From the NCBI GenBank assembly GCA_963809895.1, contig CAWELD010000010.1:352001-416000 (forward strand): DNA of 64,000 bases. Direction: 5' to 3'. The stretch is from an uncultured Gemmatimonadales bacterium. GTDB taxonomy: Bacteria > Gemmatimonadota > Gemmatimonadetes > Longimicrobiales > Gaopeijiaceae. The notes under the pieces are model-generated. The model did not search any database. It had not been told where the DNA came from and saw only the letters and a list, made by a program, of their open reading frames with translations. Within the stretch, counting starts at the first letter, position 1, and the number at the start of each line of letters is the position of its first letter. Made by a program: the position numbers and the translations under genes. Of this stretch, positions 2,464-8,229 are shown in pieces.

Positions 2464-3215
2464 GCTTCGCCGAATCCGGGCCGGTTCTCATCCGGCCGTC
2501 CCTCCTTCGGCTCCCGACAACGACGAAGGCTCCTCGACCGATGTGGTCGAGGAGCCTCAGTCGGGACGGCCGGATGGAGCTGCGGTGGCCGCTGGCGCGG
2601 CCATCCTCGCTCGCCTCGCGACGGGGGGCGGGTGGGCCTGACGGGGTGGCTAATTGGTCGCTCGGCTCGAACCGGCGATCCGTCTTCGGCTTCGCCGAAT
2701 CCGGGCCGGTTCGAACCGGGGGAGAATGAAGAGAGGCCCGCGGCAGTCGCCGCGGGCCTCGTAATCGGGACGGCCGGATGGAGCTGCGGTGGCCGCTGGC
2801 GCGGCCATCCTCGCTCGCCTCGCGACGGGGGGCGGGTGGGCCTGACGGAGTAGTGAGTCGGTCGCTCGGCTCGAACCGGCTACCCGTCTTCGGCTTCGCC
2901 GAATCCGGGCCGGTTCTCATCCGGCCGTCCCTCCTTCGGCTCCCGACAACGACGAAGGCTCCTCGACCGATGTGGTCGAGGAGCCTCAGTCGGGACGGCC
3001 GGATGGAGCTGCGGTGGCCGCTAGCGCGGCCATCCTCGCTCGCCTCGCGACGGGGGGCGGGTGGGCCTGACGGGGTGGCTAATTGGTCGCTCGGCTCGAA
3101 CCGGCGATCCGTCTTCGGCTTCGCCGAATCCGGGCCGGTTCGAACCGGCGCGGCTCGAGAACGAAGAAGGCCCGCGGCGAGTCGCCGCGGAGCCTCGTAA
3201 TCGGGACGGCCGGAT
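2464..3215 (-). repeat. tRNA-linked tandem repeat array (about 3.5 units; 429-bp higher-order period)
   Basis: CGGGACGGCCGGAT (tRNA-Pro 3' end on - strand) starts at 2562, 2766, 2991 and 3202 (spacings 204, 225, 211). Sequence from 2464 recurs from 2893. Each copy is followed on the - strand by a GC-rich hairpin. Confidence 0.92.
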
Positions 3216-3274
3216 TCGAACCGGCGACCCCCTGAACCCCATTCAGGTGCGCTACCGGGCTGCGCCACGTCCCG
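3201..3274 (-). tRNA. tRNA-Pro (GGG)
   Basis: CGGGACG acceptor stem, anticodon arm CCTGA-ATGGGGT-TCAGG, T-loop GGTTCGAATCC; no encoded CCA. Confidence 0.96.
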
Positions 3275-3310
3275 AGACGGGCAGAAGTATAACCGGCGCC
3301 CATGGCGCCC

Positions 3311-4132
3311 TCAACCCTGGGCGAGGGCCGGCGTCAGTGCGGTGTCAGGGGCGTCGAGACGGTACCCTACGCCCCGGACGGTCGTGACGAGCTCCGCCTC
3401 TGGCTGCTTCTCGTCGAGCTTGCGTCTCAGGCGGTGAACCGTAGCATCCAGTACTGCCTCGGTTCCCTTGTCCTGACCCCAGATGTCGCGCAGGAGCACT
3501 TCTCGCGGTACCACCTCGCCCTTGCCTTCCATCAACCGCACCAGCAGCTCGAATTCCCTTCCGCTGAGCGTCAGGGGGTCCTCACCGTCGAGCACCTGTC
3601 GGCTGGTCAGGTCGATGGTGAGCCCTCCGATCATGACCCGGTGTCTCAGCGGCCTGTTCGGGGCTGGAGTCCCGCTGATCTGTCGCAACAGGACCTGACG
3701 ACGCATCAGAATGGCACGGGCGGAGTGTGGAGGACACACGAGGTCGTCGGCACCGGCGGCGAGCGCTTCGTCGGTGCACTCGGGGTCTGCGCAGGATGAC
3801 AGGAGAAGGCGGACTGCACGGGATCCTCCCTTCTCGAGGGAGCTCAGGAATTCAAGGGAATCTCCCGCCGTCGGGTCCGCGCCCACCACGATGGTGTCGG
3901 GGCGAATACGGTCGGCGTCCTCCATCGCTCGAGCGAAGGTGGTGGCGGTCGCAACCGCGTGACCCGACTCCCGGCAGGCTTCGGCGAGGCTCGCCGCGTT
4001 GCGGCCGATGCCAGCGAGGAGGATCATCCCTCGCTCGACGGCGGGCCGGCCGTCGCCCCGAATCGGACGCTCGCCGCCGGGATGGGCCGCTGTTGCATGC
4101 TCGAGCTGGTTGATATCACGTCTGATCAACAT
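3311..4132 (-). CDS. OmpR/PhoB-family winged-helix regulator with degenerate receiver domain
   Basis: C-terminal LSGREFELL...VHRLRRKL...TVRGVGY; ATG at 4132 has GAGGA upstream; receiver lacks the usual acidic pocket and Lys. Confidence 0.88.
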   Translation of the reverse strand: MLIRRDINQLEHATAAHPGGERPIRGDGRPAVERGMILLAGIGRNAASLAEACRESGHAVATATTFARAMEDADRIRPDTIVVGADPTAGDSLEFLSSLEKGGSRAVRLLLSSCADPECTDEALAAGADDLVCPPHSARAILMRRQVLLRQISGTPAPNRPLRHRVMIGGLTIDLTSRQVLDGEDPLTLSGREFELLVRLMEGKGEVVPREVLLRDIWGQDKGTEAVLDATVHRLRRKLDEKQPEAELVTTVRGVGYRLDAPDTALTPALAQG

Positions 4133-4305
4133 CTCAAATCCTCTCAGCAAGAGGTGCGCTGTGCACCTCTGATATCTTCTTCATAGGCGTCGCCGCAGGG
4201 GTGACGTTGATCCTACAGCACCGAGGACCCACAGGGTCCGGGAAGTGTTGTCGGGCCGCGGCAATCCTCCGGGGAACCCACCCGAACAAGCGGGTGTTCG
4301 GAGGG

Positions 4306-4335
4306 TTGACACCCCCCTGGCCGAACGGGTATACT
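4306..4335 (+). promoter_or_regulatory. sigma70-type promoter of the tRNA array
   Basis: TTGACA (4306-4311), 18-nt spacer, TATACT (4330-4335), 11 nt before the first tRNA. Confidence 0.85.
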
Positions 4336-4346
4336 TGGGGCCCTGT

Positions 4347-4420
<74 letters not shown>

Positions 4421-4494
4421 TTTTGGAGCGCCGCCGGGTCTGGGCGGCGTTTCCCACGTTTGAGAGTCACGCCGAGGCGCCGGAGAGATCGACG

Positions 4495-4617
4495 ATGCCG
4501 TTTTCCCTGAGTCCGCGAACGACCGAGCGTGCGCGCACGGACGCGTCGCAGGCCCGTGGGTTCACGGTGGCGGACACCTGGTCTAGCCAGCATCGGGTGG
4601 GGGTTGGCGAGCGGTAG
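4495..4617 (+). CDS. Putative 40-aa leader peptide inside the tRNA array
   Basis: GGAGAG RBS-like motif at 4482-4487; MPFSLSPRTTERARTDASQARGFTVADTWSSQHRVGVGER*; 3' end overlaps a potential antiterminator. Confidence 0.5.
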   Translation: MPFSLSPRTTERARTDASQARGFTVADTWSSQHRVGVGER

Positions 4618-4645
4618 CATTGCGACCGTCTTCGCTTGAAGAGCC

Positions 4646-4679
4646 CCGCCCGAGCCCGAGTGGCCGGGCGGTTTTTTTT
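4646..4679 (+). terminator. Intrinsic terminator (attenuator-like) directly before tRNA-Phe
   Basis: CCGCCCG (4646-4652) pairs with CGGGCGG (4665-4671), inner GCC/GGC pairs, then 8 T (4672-4679). Confidence 0.8.
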
Positions 4680-4681
4680 CC

Positions 4682-4754
4682 GGCCAGGTAGCTCAGTTGG
4701 TAGAGCACACGACTGAAAATCGTGGTGTCGGCGGTTCGATTCCGTCCCTGGCCA
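4682..4754 (+). tRNA. tRNA-Phe (GAA)
   Basis: GGCCAGG/CCTGGCC acceptor stem; CACGA-CTGAAAA-TCGTG anticodon arm. Confidence 0.96.
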
Positions 4755-4792
4755 TGAAAAAGCAGGACGACACCGCCCCGAGCGGAGTCCAG

Positions 4793-4865
4793 AGGTCCGT
4801 AGCTCAATTGGTAGAGCACCGGTCTCCAAAACCGGCGGTTGGGGGTTCGAGTCCCTCCGGGCCTG
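4793..4865 (+). tRNA. tRNA-Trp (CCA)
   Basis: CCGGT-CTCCAAA-ACCGG anticodon arm; GGTTCGAGTCC T-arm. Confidence 0.96.
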
Positions 4866-4907
4866 TGATACGGCCGGAGTGTGGCCTGCCCCTGGGGGTG
4901 GGTAGAG

Positions 4908-4979
4908 GCCCCCATCGTCTAACGGCTAGGACACCACTCTTTCAAGGTGGCGGTCGGGGTTCGATTCCCCGTGGGGGCA
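4908..4979 (+). tRNA. tRNA-Glu (TTC)
   Basis: GCCCCCA/TGGGGGC acceptor stem; CCACT-CTTTCAA-GGTGG anticodon arm. Confidence 0.96.
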
Positions 4980-5008
4980 TTGATCAACGTTGGAATTGCA
5001 GGGAGTTT

Positions 5009-5082
5009 GGGGCTGTAGCTCAGTCGGTTAGAGTGCCGGTCTGTCACACCGGAGGCCGCGGGTTCGAGTCCCGTCAGCCCCG
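5009..5082 (+). tRNA. tRNA-Asp (GTC)
   Basis: GGGGCTG/CAGCCCC acceptor stem; CCGGT-CTGTCAC-ACCGG anticodon arm. Confidence 0.96.
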
Positions 5083-5165
5083 CTGGACGTTGTTTGAAAT
5101 CTGGTGCGAGCGGTCGATCCTTTCGGGGATCCCCTCGTGCTTTCGGGTCATCGGAATGAAAGGCT

Positions 5166-5238
<73 letters not shown>

Positions 5239-5278
5239 CTGGTCCGCGGGTGCGCCGTGAGGCGTGCCCCGGTGCCGG

Positions 5279-5362
5279 GCTCGGGTGGCGGAATTGGTAG
5301 ACGCGCAGGATTCAGGATCCTGTGGGGGCAACCCCGTGAGGGTTCGAGTCCCTCCCCGAGCA
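5279..5362 (+). tRNA. tRNA-Leu (CAG)
   Basis: CAGGA-TTCAGGA-TCCTG anticodon arm; long variable arm. Confidence 0.96.
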
Positions 5363-5429
5363 CTGCTTCGGTTCGCTTGAGGCAGCGTCGGTCACCCTCG
5401 CCAGGTGCCGACAAACCGATAGGAAGGTC

Positions 5430-5513
5430 GCCCACGTGCTGGAATTGGTAGACAGGCTGGTTTGAGGGACCAGTGCCGGAAACGGCGTACAGGTTCGAGT
5501 CCTGTCGTGGGCA
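5430..5513 (+). tRNA. tRNA-Leu (GAG)
   Basis: CTGGT-TTGAGGG-ACCAG anticodon arm; long variable arm. Confidence 0.96.
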
Positions 5514-5527
5514 CTCCTGGCGGGCGC

Positions 5528-5601
5528 GCGCCCGTAGCTCAATTGGATAGAGCGTTTGACTACGGATCAAAAGGTTGGGGGTTCGAGTCCTCCCGGGCGC
5601 A
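5528..5601 (+). tRNA. tRNA-Arg (ACG)
   Basis: TTTGA-CTACGGA-TCAAA anticodon arm. Confidence 0.96.
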
Positions 5602-5629
5602 TCTCGTGTTGAAGGGCACAAGGGGATTC

Positions 5630-5703
5630 GGGCGCGTAGCTCAGTTGGTTAGAGCGCTACGTTGACATCGTAGAGGTCAGAGGTTCGAGTCCTCTCGCGC
5701 CCA
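5630..5703 (+). tRNA. tRNA-Val (GAC)
   Basis: CTACG-TTGACAT-CGTAG anticodon arm. Confidence 0.96.
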
Positions 5704-5713
5704 TGCGAAGGCT

Positions 5714-5786
<73 letters not shown>

Positions 5787-5796
5787 CTCCAGACCT

Positions 5797-5869
5797 GCCA
5801 CCATAGCTCAGCTGGTAGAGCACGTCACTCGTAATGACGGGGTCGTCGGTTCGAGTCCGACTGGTGGCT
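5797..5869 (+). tRNA. tRNA-Thr (CGT)
   Basis: CGTCA-CTCGTAA-TGACG anticodon arm. Confidence 0.96.
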
Positions 5870-5903
5870 CTGGCCGGTCGGGCGAAGCCCGGCTCTGATG
5901 TGG

Positions 5904-5976
5904 TGCCCCGTGGTGTAATTGGCAACACGCCGGATTCTGGCTCCGGAGAGTCTAGGTTCGAGCCCTAGCGGGGCAA
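5904..5976 (+). tRNA. tRNA-Gln (CTG)
   Basis: CCGGA-TTCTGGC-TCCGG anticodon arm; TGCCCCG/CGGGGCA acceptor stem. Confidence 0.95.
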
Positions 5977-6015
5977 TCTTCACCGCCGACGTCGGATGGA
6001 TCGGCGGAATCCTGG

Positions 6016-6101
6016 GGAGGGATGGCCGAGTGGCTTAAGGCGGCGCCCTGCTAAGGCGTTGGGCCGAAAGGCCCGCGTGGGTTCGAATCCCACTCCCTCC
6101 G
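6016..6101 (+). tRNA. tRNA-Ser (GCT)
   Basis: GCGCC-CTGCTAA-GGCGT anticodon arm; long variable arm. Confidence 0.95.
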
Positions 6102-6146
6102 TTCGATTCCTTCTTCGGGATCCCGTCTCGAGGTTGGATGCTTCCT

Positions 6147-6230
6147 GGACGGGTGGCCGAGCGGCTTAAGGCGCACGATTGGAAATCGTGTGGGCGAAAG
6201 CCCACGTGGGTTCGAATCCCACCCCGTCCG
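6147..6230 (+). tRNA. tRNA-Ser (GGA)
   Basis: CACGA-TTGGAAA-TCGTG anticodon arm; long variable arm. Confidence 0.95.
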
Positions 6231-6285
6231 TTGCTGATCGAGAAAGCGGGAGTGAGAGTGGGCTTCTCACCCACGGAAGGCTGTT

Positions 6286-6359
6286 CGGGGCGTGGCTCAG
6301 TCCGGTAGAGCGCTGCGTTCGGGTCGCAGAGGTCCCCGGTTCGAATCCGGGCGCCCCGA
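6286..6359 (+). tRNA. tRNA-Pro (CGG)
   Basis: CTGCG-TTCGGGT-CGCAG anticodon arm. Confidence 0.96.
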
Positions 6360-6378
6360 CTTTGGTTGGTTCAGGCAG

Positions 6379-6464
6379 GGAGGGGTGCCGGAGATGGTCG
6401 AACGGGCCCGCCTCGAAAGCGGTGCGTGCGAAAGCACACGGGGGTTCGAATCCCTCCCCCTCCG
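6379..6464 (+). tRNA. tRNA-Ser (CGA)
   Basis: CCGC-CTCGAAA-GCGG anticodon arm; long variable arm; GGAGGGG/CCCCTCC acceptor stem. Confidence 0.93.
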
Positions 6465-6572
6465 TTGCGGGTAGCGTGCTTTTTCATTGCGATGATCCGA
6501 CACGACGTCCAACGCCCCCTGCCGCATTCCGGTAGGGGGCGTTCTTGTGTTGGGGGAGCCTGGAGGTCGGCT

Positions 6573-6959
6573 CTACGAGTCGTCTTGGGCGCGCCGGGCG
6601 AGCGCTCGCTGCACGGCGGCCCGAACCCCGTCGACCGTGAGGGGCTTCTGCAGCGTCTCCACGGCGCCGATCATACCCGCGTCCTTGAGAACGAAGTCCT
6701 TGTCGGCGAAGCCACCGCCGGAGATGGCGATGATGGGGACGTCGGGATTGAGCTCCTGATACGTGATCAGGAACTCGATTCCGTCCATCTCGGGCATGTA
6801 CACGTCGGTGATCACCGCGTCCACCGTGTACTGGCGCCCCAGGTCCAGAGCCGCTCGCCCGTCGGCGGCTTCCAGGACCTCGTGACCGTCGAGCTGCAGG
6901 ATCTTGGTGAGAGACCTGCGGACGGCGGGTTCGTCGTCGATTACCAGGATCGTGGCCAT
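6573..6959 (-). CDS. Single-domain response regulator (CheY-like)
   Basis: ILVIDDE, TDVYMPEMDG, QKP receiver motifs. Confidence 0.92.
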   Translation of the reverse strand: MATILVIDDEPAVRRSLTKILQLDGHEVLEAADGRAALDLGRQYTVDAVITDVYMPEMDGIEFLITYQELNPDVPIIAISGGGFADKDFVLKDAGMIGAVETLQKPLTVDGVRAAVQRALARRAQDDS

Positions 6960-7089
6960 GAAGTCGCGTGGGGCCGAGTCGAGTGCGCCTGCGGGAGAGC
7001 GACCCCTGAAGTATACTGCAAGGCTTCGATCAGGACAGGTTCACGACGCTTTCATCGATCTTCGCCCTCTTGATTCCGCGGGAGGAATC

Positions 7090-8229
7090 ATGCCGGACCC
7101 GGAACGCGAGACATCCCCCAAGTCGGCGGATACCGCCGCGCGAATCCGCGAGCTGGAGTCGCGCCTCGCGAGCGCGCGCCGGATGGAAGTGCTGGGTCGG
7201 CTGGTCGGAGGCGTGGCGCACGACTTCAACAACGTGCTGTCCGTGATCACGACGCTCAGCGAGTTGCTGATCCGCTTCGCGCCGGACGACGATCCCGATC
7301 TCGAGGATCTGGAGGAGATTCGCGCCGCCGCCCTCCGCGGATCCGAGTTGACCCGCCAGCTCCTGGCCTTTGCCAGGGCGGACGTGGGAGAGCCGGTGGC
7401 GGTGGATCTCAACGAGCGCGTACGCCTGGCGGAGAAGCTCTTCCGAAAGCTGCTTCCGGAAGACGTGACTCTCACGGTGGACGTTGCGGACGACGTTCCC
7501 CGGGTGCGAGCCGACCCCGTGGAAGTGGATCAGGTGATTCTCAACCTCGCGGCGTATGGGCGTGAATGCCTGCGAGAGGGTGGGACCATCCGCCTTTCCA
7601 CGACCACGAGCCCCGAAGGCGAGGCTGTGATCGAGGTCCTCCTGGAAGGGCGCGCGGGGGCTCCCGTGGACATGCGCCCGGATACGCCGGCATCGGCGCG
7701 GGGCGGCGTCGTCGAGCCGGGGCTGGAACCCATCGAGGAGACGCTACTCCTGCGCGGGGGTGAGCTGCGCGTGGAGAATCGGACGATCTCGGTGCTCCTC
7801 CAGCCTGCCGAGGAGCCAGCGGGAGGCGAGGAAGCCGTGGTCGCCGGGAACGGAGAGGCGATCCTCGTGGTCGAGGATCAGGCCACGGTGGCGGAGGGTG
7901 TCGTCCGGACCCTGGAGGCGCTCGGGTACAACGCCCGGGCGGCGGGTACCGGCGAAGAAGCTCTCGCCGCCATGCGCGAACGGGACGCGCTCTCGTTGGT
8001 GGTGTGCGACGTGGTGCTGGAGGACTGCTGGGGAGCGGAGCTCGAGCGCCGGGCGGCGGCATCCGACGGCGCCGGCATGCCGTTCCTCTTCTTTTCGGGC
8101 CACGAGCAGCATCCGGCTTTGGCCGAGTTGCGCGCAGCGGGCCGCCCGGTGCTCCGCAAGCCCTTCACCCAGCAGGTCCTGGCCGCCGCCGTGGCGGACG
8201 CCCTGCGAGGGACTCGCGCCGAGGGCTGA
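7090..8229 (+). CDS. Sensor-less hybrid histidine kinase-like protein (HisKA, degenerate ATPase, receiver)
   Basis: GGAGGA RBS before ATG 7090; GVAHDFNN H-box; C-terminal ILVVED...CDVVL...RKPF receiver. Confidence 0.85.
   Translation: MPDPERETSPKSADTAARIRELESRLASARRMEVLGRLVGGVAHDFNNVLSVITTLSELLIRFAPDDDPDLEDLEEIRAAALRGSELTRQLLAFARADVGEPVAVDLNERVRLAEKLFRKLLPEDVTLTVDVADDVPRVRADPVEVDQVILNLAAYGRECLREGGTIRLSTTTSPEGEAVIEVLLEGRAGAPVDMRPDTPASARGGVVEPGLEPIEETLLLRGGELRVENRTISVLLQPAEEPAGGEEAVVAGNGEAILVVEDQATVAEGVVRTLEALGYNARAAGTGEEALAAMRERDALSLVVCDVVLEDCWGAELERRAAASDGAGMPFLFFSGHEQHPALAELRAAGRPVLRKPFTQQVLAAAVADALRGTRAEG

Follow-up and report, generated by a model that had tools for sequence, protein, structure and literature searches.

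An open reading frame (ORF) of 40 codons and a strong intrinsic terminator lie between the initiator tRNA gene and 16 elongator tRNA genes of an operon in an uncultured Gemmatimonadales bacterium, and the element that they form is, on balance, likely a ribosome-dependent (leader-peptide) transcription attenuator located inside the tRNA operon. The operon is found in a stretch of 64,000 nucleotides (nt) of contig CAWELD010000010.1 (positions 352,001 to 416,000; assembly GCA_963809895.1), which is called the window here and in which coordinates refer to the plus strand unless a minus sign is given. An earlier note, made from the letters of the window alone, had proposed an attenuator at this site that gates the downstream tRNA genes and whose ORF is largely composed of codons read by their products. 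The layout, the coding frame, the lack of another promoter and the single-copy state of the gated tRNAs all support this interpretation, whereas the notion of an ORF written throughout in the codons of the array is not supported as it stands.

In the proposed mechanism, a single promoter (4306-4335) would drive tRNA-fMet, the translated 40-codon leader, the strong terminator and then the 16 elongator tRNA genes. A G-rich segment at the 3′ end of the ORF (segment 2) would choose between segment 1, located just after a conserved Trp codon, and segment 3, which is the 5′ arm of the terminator. A ribosome that reaches the stop codon would leave segment 3 free for the terminator, and tRNA-fMet alone would be made; transcription would likewise end after tRNA-fMet if the leader is left untranslated, in which case the 1:2 hairpin would form first and segment 3 would again be free. 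A ribosome lingering with the codons for Asp-Thr-Trp(-Ser) in its decoding site would cover segment 1, segments 2 and 3 would pair as the antiterminator, and RNA polymerase would enter the array. Translation of the leader, a terminator that is both working and conditional, and pausing at the motif are suggested by the sequence, its conservation and thermodynamic folding.

Layout of the operon and the need for read-through

The whole operon appears to be served by a sigma-70-type promoter, TTGACA-18-TATACT (4306-4335), which matches the consensus at 11 of 12 positions. The first gene, 5′ of the putative switch, is the tRNA-Met(CAT) called by ARAGORN at 4346-4421 and taken to be tRNA-fMet, in which three G:C pairs stand beside the anticodon loop and position 1:72 is unpaired on inspection of the sequence; we take these features to be hallmarks of initiator tRNAs and the assignment is based on them. 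A spacer of 260 nt separates it from tRNA-Phe (4682-4754), the first gene of the gated array, which extends from 4682 to 6464 (ARAGORN) and consists of the elongator tRNA genes Phe, Trp, Glu, Asp, Ala, Leu, Leu, Arg, Val, Ala, Thr, Gln, Ser, Ser, Pro and Ser, in this order.

Within the spacer, a fold of its whole length places a first hairpin with a weak TTT tail (hairpin 1, 4425-4453) directly 3′ of tRNA-fMet. A Shine-Dalgarno-like GGAGAG can be read at 4482-4487, 7 nt 5′ of the ATG at 4495 that begins the leader ORF (4495-4617), which comprises 40 codons and the stop codon TAG (4615-4617), appears in the list of ORFs and has orthologues in relatives. The conserved motif proposed as the sensor, F-T-V-A-D-T-W-S-S in the window, is encoded at 4561-4587 with the Trp codon at 4579-4581. 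Segment 1 (4575-4584), the 5′ strand of the protector, has its partner at 4589-4599 (-11.5 kcal/mol in the window). Segment 2, the 5′ strand of the antiterminator, occupies 4593-4602 within the 3′ end of the ORF and is delimited by pairing, fold and alignment. Segment 3 (4644-4653) has two possible partners, segment 2 and segment 4, and forms the 5′ arm of the terminator when paired with the latter. The terminator itself (4646-4679) is a hairpin at 4646-4671 with the arms CCGCCCGAGCC/GGCCGGGCGG and a core of -19.4 kcal/mol, followed by a U8 tract at 4672-4679 that ends 2 nt before tRNA-Phe.

These elements are where the earlier note had placed them: the ribosome-binding-like site, the ORF and the terminator are present as described, the protector pairing 4575-4581/4593-4599 can be formed, and the ten contiguous pairs claimed between 4593-4602 and 4644-4653 exist, one of them being a G.U pair. 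The inner helices by which the antiterminator was said to extend around the stop codon (4606-4636) are also found in sequence and fold, at 4606-4610/4632-4636 and 4611-4615/4625-4629. Hairpin 1 is followed by a conserved box CCAYGTT (together 4425-4461 in the window), and both are kept across the spacers of the window's family; they may represent a processing site or a first, weak stop.

The genes behind the terminator can hardly be dispensed with, as the genome has no second gene for any of the 16 anticodons of the array, which includes its sole Phe, Trp and Asp tRNAs. A separate promoter just before tRNA-Phe, which the earlier note had named as an observation that would speak against its proposal, was not seen: among 115 related loci described below, a promoter-like site occurs in none of the spacers under the same sigma-70-type criteria, with other sigma factors outside the scan, and such a site stands at a fixed distance upstream of tRNA-Met in 61. 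In the 5.3-Mb genome, of 69.4% G+C, only 45 runs of six or more T and three of eight or more occur on both strands. The U8 after the hairpin is therefore not an accident of composition, and canonical U-rich terminators seem rare in the source organism.

Conservation of the leader and its peptide motif

A search with the spacer returned full-length or partial matches in the same genus, where the arrangement of tRNA-Met, approximately 200-270 nt and tRNA-Phe is kept. With tRNA-Phe as the anchor, 163 of 201 genomes of the order gave a match and 115 distinct loci were gathered, one of which (L021) comes from a genome flagged as unpublished; a tRNA-Met(CAT) gene lies directly upstream of tRNA-Phe in all 115. 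In the window's own family (f1, 55 loci) an in-frame ORF with a [D/E][T/S/A]W motif is present in 32 loci from 14 genera, and its substitutions are of the coding type, so that the conservation which had been named beforehand as a check is indeed observed. The f1 loci without the ORF comprise those of one genus, g19 (18 loci), and of three other genera, and two f1 loci are degenerate. The 24 loci of family f2 have spacers of mostly 46-116 nt with a G+C hairpin and a T-run and without an ORF. Among the 36 loci of family f3, eight ORFs fit the motif pattern and a ninth match, L087, looks spurious; roughly ten further degenerate forms can be recognized by eye (such as DSWPG.AG* and ADSRTGWAHR*).

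A hairpin with a T-rich tail is found by a uniform criterion between tRNA-fMet and tRNA-Phe in 97 of the 115 spacers and in all three families; a stop signal at this place thus extends through the order, and the spacers with the ORF are an elaborated form of it. Outside the order but within the class, four genomes have a solitary tRNA-Phe with a promoter of its own, and in one genome the gene belongs to a Met-Asn-Phe array with short spacers. A profile of the peptide, run over 301 genomes of the phylum, gave strong hits in f1 only; all hits with tRNAs nearby lie in the Met-Phe spacer, one per genome and including the genome of the window, and the 18 best-ranked hits (E <= 3e-4) are all in that spacer apart from three without a tRNA. 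A scan of the genome contigs with a DNA pattern found the Met-Phe context in three of at least 120 loci, among the matches listed, the others being chance matches in G+C-rich genomes.

The length of the ORF by itself means nothing, because the same frame is open from 4201 to 4617, far 5′ of the ORF start, in DNA of 69% G+C; what makes the ORF credible is its conservation in relatives. The peptide alignment defines a conserved core [W/F]-x-x-[A/S]-D-[T/S]-W-S within the consensus ...W-T-x-A-D-T-W-S-S-P-R-x-R-A-G-x-x-R-R, and the order of residues in the motif is fixed. Across 26 distinct cores the Trp is invariant, the Asp is kept in 25 and the Thr in 22. The codons vary beneath these residues: the Asp is encoded by GAT in 15 cores and by GAC in ten, the Thr by ACG in 16, by ACC in five (the window included) and by ACA in one. 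At position -6, Trp in 16 and Phe in five of the 26 cores replace each other, an aromatic-for-aromatic exchange which needs two base changes. The entropy of the four core codons is 0.52 at the first, 0.10 at the second and 0.98 at the third codon position, and the pooled ratio of non-synonymous to synonymous differences (pN/pS) is 0.34.

Signals for translation follow the same frame. A Shine-Dalgarno-like core precedes an in-frame start in 26 of the 32 orthologues, and such cores stand before 34 of 75 in-frame start triplets and ten of 68 out-of-frame ones (Fisher p = 1e-4, the sequences being related). The stop codon lies 10-12 codons 3′ of the Trp codon in all 32 ORF-bearing f1 spacers. The N-terminal part is poorly conserved and ranges from about 9 to 34 codons, and some of the orthologous ORFs have only about 20 codons in total. 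Gene callers almost never report the ORF, as only six relatives, all unnamed, are present in a database of 5.8 billion proteins. Public runs searched for the region did not contain the spacer either: the 22 that gave matches had at most 24% of the sampled words, presumably those of the conserved tRNA parts.

Several of the spacers carry features of their own. Those of g19 (for example L124, L121 and L119; approximately 105-162 nt) are without the ORF and keep hairpin 1 and a conserved terminator, CCCGGTCGG + TTTTTGTCGG, which is located some 20-25 nt before tRNA-Phe and the 5′ side of which begins with GGCCAGG, the first seven bases of tRNA-Phe; this may be a different, RNA-only leader. Four f2 spacers of 49-57 nt (L036, L038, L040 and L041) consist of a hairpin and TTTTTGTT, flanked by runs of C5 and G5 whose pairing could lengthen the stem so that it spans the U-tract. 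In L098, L072, L077 and L086 of f3 and in L109 and L117 of f2, the stretch between the terminator and the real tRNA-Phe contains incomplete copies of the 5′ end of this gene (GGCCAGGTAGCTCAGTTG...), and those of L072 and L077 lie within tandem duplicated blocks; the copies may be remnants of recombination or integration at tRNA-Phe.

Alternative pairings and the position of the ribosome

The overlapping 1:2, 2:3 and 3:4 layout that the earlier note had recognized in the window is conserved over the 14 genera. Segment 2 is a nearly invariant GGGYGGG that starts a median of 9 nt 3′ of the Trp codon, and in most relatives segment 1 is AGCCCGCG directly 3′ of that codon. By the uniform criterion a terminator is present in 31 of the 32 orthologues, and in the ORF-bearing f1 spacers the hairpin and T-run end 0-12 nt from tRNA-Phe. 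The 1:2 region has a median of -13.6 kcal/mol, being weaker and using another partner in the window's own genus. The duplex of segment 2 with the terminator 5′ arm and a few bases upstream of it ranges from -15 to -35 kcal/mol, and the folded region from segment 2 to segment 3 has a median of -37.6 kcal/mol against a median of -19.8 kcal/mol for the terminator core. In the window, the minimum-free-energy (MFE) structure of the whole spacer is exactly the antiterminator described above.

Pairs were counted on a MAFFT alignment that had not been fitted to any structure, with 30 sequences in the count for the 2:3 helix. The 1:2 and 3:4 helices have 84.7% of their cells paired, as compared with 31-55% when the partners are slid against each other, and six of their pairs show double changes; pair 34-39 is seen as CG, GC and UA. 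For the 2:3 helix the figures are 77.7% against 39-54%, with double changes in three pairs, and its observed pairing was reached by one of 500 shuffles. The 2:3 columns that covary, 47-98 and 48-97 (AU vs GC), are located at or outside the base of the terminator stem, and the terminator alone therefore does not explain their covariation. Furthermore, the mean advantage of cognate over non-cognate 2:3 duplexes is 1.5 kcal/mol (permutation p = 0.016, with one sequence per genus from 14 genera).

The effect of a ribosome was modelled by holding its footprint single-stranded, with assumed limits of 15 nt on the upstream side and 12 nt on the downstream side of the first base in the A-site. With the A-site at the stop codon, the MFE structure contains the terminator in 30 of 32 orthologues and the antiterminator in none, while with the A-site on the Trp codon the antiterminator is found in 22 and the terminator in eight. 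When the footprint is slid along the leader, the fraction of sequences with the terminator is about 0.5 upstream of the motif, drops to its lowest value, 0.25, on the Thr and Trp codons and reaches 0.8-1.0 from Trp+3 onwards, and under two other assumed footprints the minimum remains within Asp to Ser+1. The profile therefore suggests that the switch would be thrown by a ribosome pausing on the most conserved codons. Stalling at the stop codon itself, as in TnaC, was also considered as the regulatory step and was rejected, as a ribosome at the stop codon favours the terminator here.

A number of observations weigh against the attenuator or against its sensing of tRNA supply. The spacer as a whole folds with unremarkable stability (z = -0.92; a fold as stable is reached by 32 of 200 shuffles), and in folds without a ribosome the MFE structures are split evenly, with 15 terminators and 15 antiterminators among the 32. 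The footprint profiles depend on their assumed limits, and in f3 (11 loci) the terminator fraction only rises towards the stop codon, with no sharp minimum at Trp. G-rich and C-rich strands pair regardless of their order (mean of -23.4 kcal/mol against -19.0 kcal/mol for shuffled sequences), and the 2:3 duplex stands out from mononucleotide shuffles of the G-rich strand at a level of <= 0.05 in only ten of 32 cases. Most stem columns are invariant, so that the covariation comes down to a few columns in kindred sequences. The ORF-less spacers of f2 and g19 have terminator-like hairpins between the same tRNAs, and a leaky terminator can thus suffice. As regards the sensor, it offers one codon of each kind without the tandem runs of classical attenuators, and the conserved Thr is encoded in five of the 26 cores by ACC, which in this genome is read by a tRNA from outside the array.

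Possible causes of a pause, rival explanations and known systems

The match between the codons of the ORF and the tRNAs of the array, as proposed in the earlier note, is modest in the window and largely dissolves beyond it. The count of 28 array-decoded codons among the first 32, ATG included, is right; without the ATG it is 27 of 31 (p = 7e-4), with a cut at codon 32 that was chosen after the fact. Over the whole ORF, 29 of 39 codons are array-decoded (p = 0.035) against a genome baseline of 59.0%, and this weak enrichment is not conserved. Across the 14 genera, array tRNAs can decode 236 of the 316 codons up to Trp+2 where 186.5 are expected, in a total that counts the homologous core repeatedly; a figure of 219.7 is already expected from the peptide sequences, so that amino-acid composition accounts for most of the enrichment. 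It is also true that the window's ORF contains codons for 15 of the 16 array tRNAs (P = 0.016), but the ORFs of relatives cover 9-15 of them, mostly with P > 0.1, and Leu-CAG is usually missing. The whole ORF as a sampler of array codons was thus rejected, its enrichment being weak and its coverage not conserved, and what is conserved is instead the D-T-W-S motif, the putative sensor.

This motif fits the sensing of tRNA supply and equally fits the arrest of the ribosome by its nascent peptide. The preferred reading, which is put forward tentatively, is that the pause is caused by limiting charged Asp, Thr, Trp and Ser tRNAs, most of them encoded by the array; it is preferred because the amino acids of the motif are served by array tRNAs and because minor, wobble-read codons are frequent at the site. 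The D, W and S of the motif are array-decoded whatever the codon. Among the minor codons, GAT encodes the conserved Asp in 15 of the 25 cores that have it, as compared with approximately 25% of Asp codons genome-wide, and TCT, with 2.2 occurrences per thousand codons, stands directly 3′ of the Trp codon in the window's genus. Pausing by tRNA shortage would provide feedback on the output of elongator tRNAs relative to the initiator tRNA. It is conceivable, if somewhat speculative, that the element acts as a keeper of this ratio: the initiator tRNA would always be made, and the speed at which the leader is read would decide co-transcriptionally on the 16 elongator tRNAs. Reading of the leader would need the initiator tRNA itself, and fast reading would need the Asp, Thr, Trp and Ser tRNAs of the array.

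In the other version of the same architecture, [W/F]xx[A/S]D[T/S]WS would pause the ribosome by acting in its tunnel, as do the peptides of TnaC, SecM, SpeFL and the Erm leaders, and might answer a small molecule or translation stress rather than tRNA supply. The fixed residue order, the single codon of each kind and the conservation of amino acids rather than particular codons, as seen in the synonymous Asp and Thr codons and in the Trp/Phe exchange at -6, are all in line with such an arrest. Conservation of this kind is however predicted by codon sensing as well, since the motif residues are all served by the array, and the peptide bears no likeness to a known arrest peptide: searches with it gave no hits in NCBIfam and, in Pfam, one non-credible hit (GATA, E = 0.12) in one of 26 members. 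No candidate effector is evident, and the f3 variants alter the motif considerably (DSWPG, ADSRTGW). Arrest by the nascent peptide is accordingly regarded as rather unlikely, though deserving of attention.

Two further explanations match the conservation pattern poorly. The ORF could be a free-standing gene for a small protein that is co-transcribed with tRNA-fMet, with the hairpin as a constitutively leaky terminator or processing signal that sets a fixed ratio of initiator to elongator tRNAs and the 2:3 complementarity as a by-product of similar G+C-rich hairpins. The readiness with which shuffled G-rich strands pair with the C-rich arm would agree with this, as would the ORF-less spacers of f2 and g19 that still hold a hairpin and T-run, the site being present in 15 of 24 f2 loci and in 17 of 23 f1 loci without the ORF. 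A small protein would, however, hardly be conserved only at the motif beside the 1:2 hairpin and vary freely in its N-terminus; past Trp+2 the changes in the peptide track the RNA pairing, as in pair 34-39, and both the Trp-to-stop and the stop-to-terminator spacing are constant. With the footprint profile placing the switch point on the conserved codons and the ORF so seldom reported as a gene, this explanation appears quite improbable. It is still harder to credit that the ORF goes untranslated and that the spacer acts purely as RNA, for instance as a platform for processing or as a leader to which a protein or an RNA binds, with an incidental frame. The frame does stay open far beyond the ORF in this G+C-rich DNA, and an Rfam scan of 3000-7500 (E <= 10) returned only tRNA-derived matches and nothing credible in 4422-4681, which leaves room for an undescribed RNA. 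The pattern over codon positions and the low pN/pS of the core, the enrichment of Shine-Dalgarno-like cores before in-frame starts and the preservation of frame and stop position in 32 of 32 orthologues despite insertions and deletions all argue for translation, and an untranslated element would be a very surprising outcome.

Around the switch, the operon ends in a terminator-like hairpin at 6511-6543. A divergent tRNA-Pro(GGG) gene lies at 3200-3275 (-) with its own promoter-like site at 3286-3314 (-), and on contig C3 ARAGORN calls a second Pro-GGG that is unusually long (88 nt). The ORFs on the minus strand of the region were dismissed, as they run through the tRNA genes.

Among described systems, the attenuators of amino-acid operons (trpL, hisL, pheL, thrL, leuL and ilvL) and pheM of pheST come closest. 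They share with the present element a short ORF led by a Shine-Dalgarno sequence, overlapping 1:2, 2:3 and 3:4 hairpins, an intrinsic terminator just before the regulated genes and the placement of the control codons, putative ones here, where a paused ribosome masks segment 1, and pheM already ties the logic of attenuation to a component of the translation apparatus. In contrast to all of these, the genes that would be regulated here are 16 tRNA genes and not those of enzymes or a synthetase. The element further differs from amino-acid attenuators in that the switch lies inside the operon, after a tRNA gene, that a fixed D-T-W-S with one codon each takes the place of a run of codons for one amino acid, and that the stop codon comes after segment 2 and not before it. 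The arrest leaders TnaC, SecM, SpeFL and ErmBL/ErmCL resemble it in their conserved peptide motif with an invariant Trp, in a constant spacing between the motif and the ORF end and in a ribosome position that decides a downstream RNA event; there is no likeness in sequence and no known effector here, and TnaC stalls at the stop codon and acts on Rho, whereas a stall at the stop codon of the present leader would favour termination.

Two other types of leader are related in their logic. The whiB7 leader of actinobacteria is an upstream-ORF attenuator that senses general translation stress. Like the present element, it combines an upstream ORF with an intrinsic terminator, slowed ribosomes lead to read-through and the output adjusts the translation machinery, although the whiB7 leader belongs to another phylum, has a different peptide and controls a transcription factor instead of tRNA genes. 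T-box riboswitches likewise use a choice between terminator and antiterminator to report the status of a tRNA and control genes of the translation apparatus. They bind the tRNA directly and need no ORF, however, and the T-box covariance model found no match in the spacer in the same Rfam scan. The textbook picture of bacterial tRNA output is one set at the promoter by growth-rate and stringent control. Ribosome-mediated attenuation has so far been described for amino-acid genes and not for tRNA genes, and here it is probably a tRNA operon that is controlled in this way. In agreement with the earlier note, which knew of no such case, no leader-peptide attenuator of a tRNA operon was found in full-text literature with subscription journals outside its coverage, including portions of PMC3082878 and PMC2965389.

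If the proposed mechanism is true, the element would provide the first case of a cellular tRNA operon under ribosome-mediated attenuation, in which the speed of decoding feeds back on the transcription of tRNA genes. Such a direct, cis-acting feedback from ribosome speed to tRNA transcription would bear on how tRNA levels are matched to decoding demand, and it would separate the control of the initiator tRNA from that of the elongator tRNAs. The element is compact and conserved over many genera, and the sister lineages provide natural controls without the ORF, so that the idea can be tested by simple reporter fusions. It would also extend classical attenuation to the Gemmatimonadota, a phylum whose gene regulation is almost unstudied.

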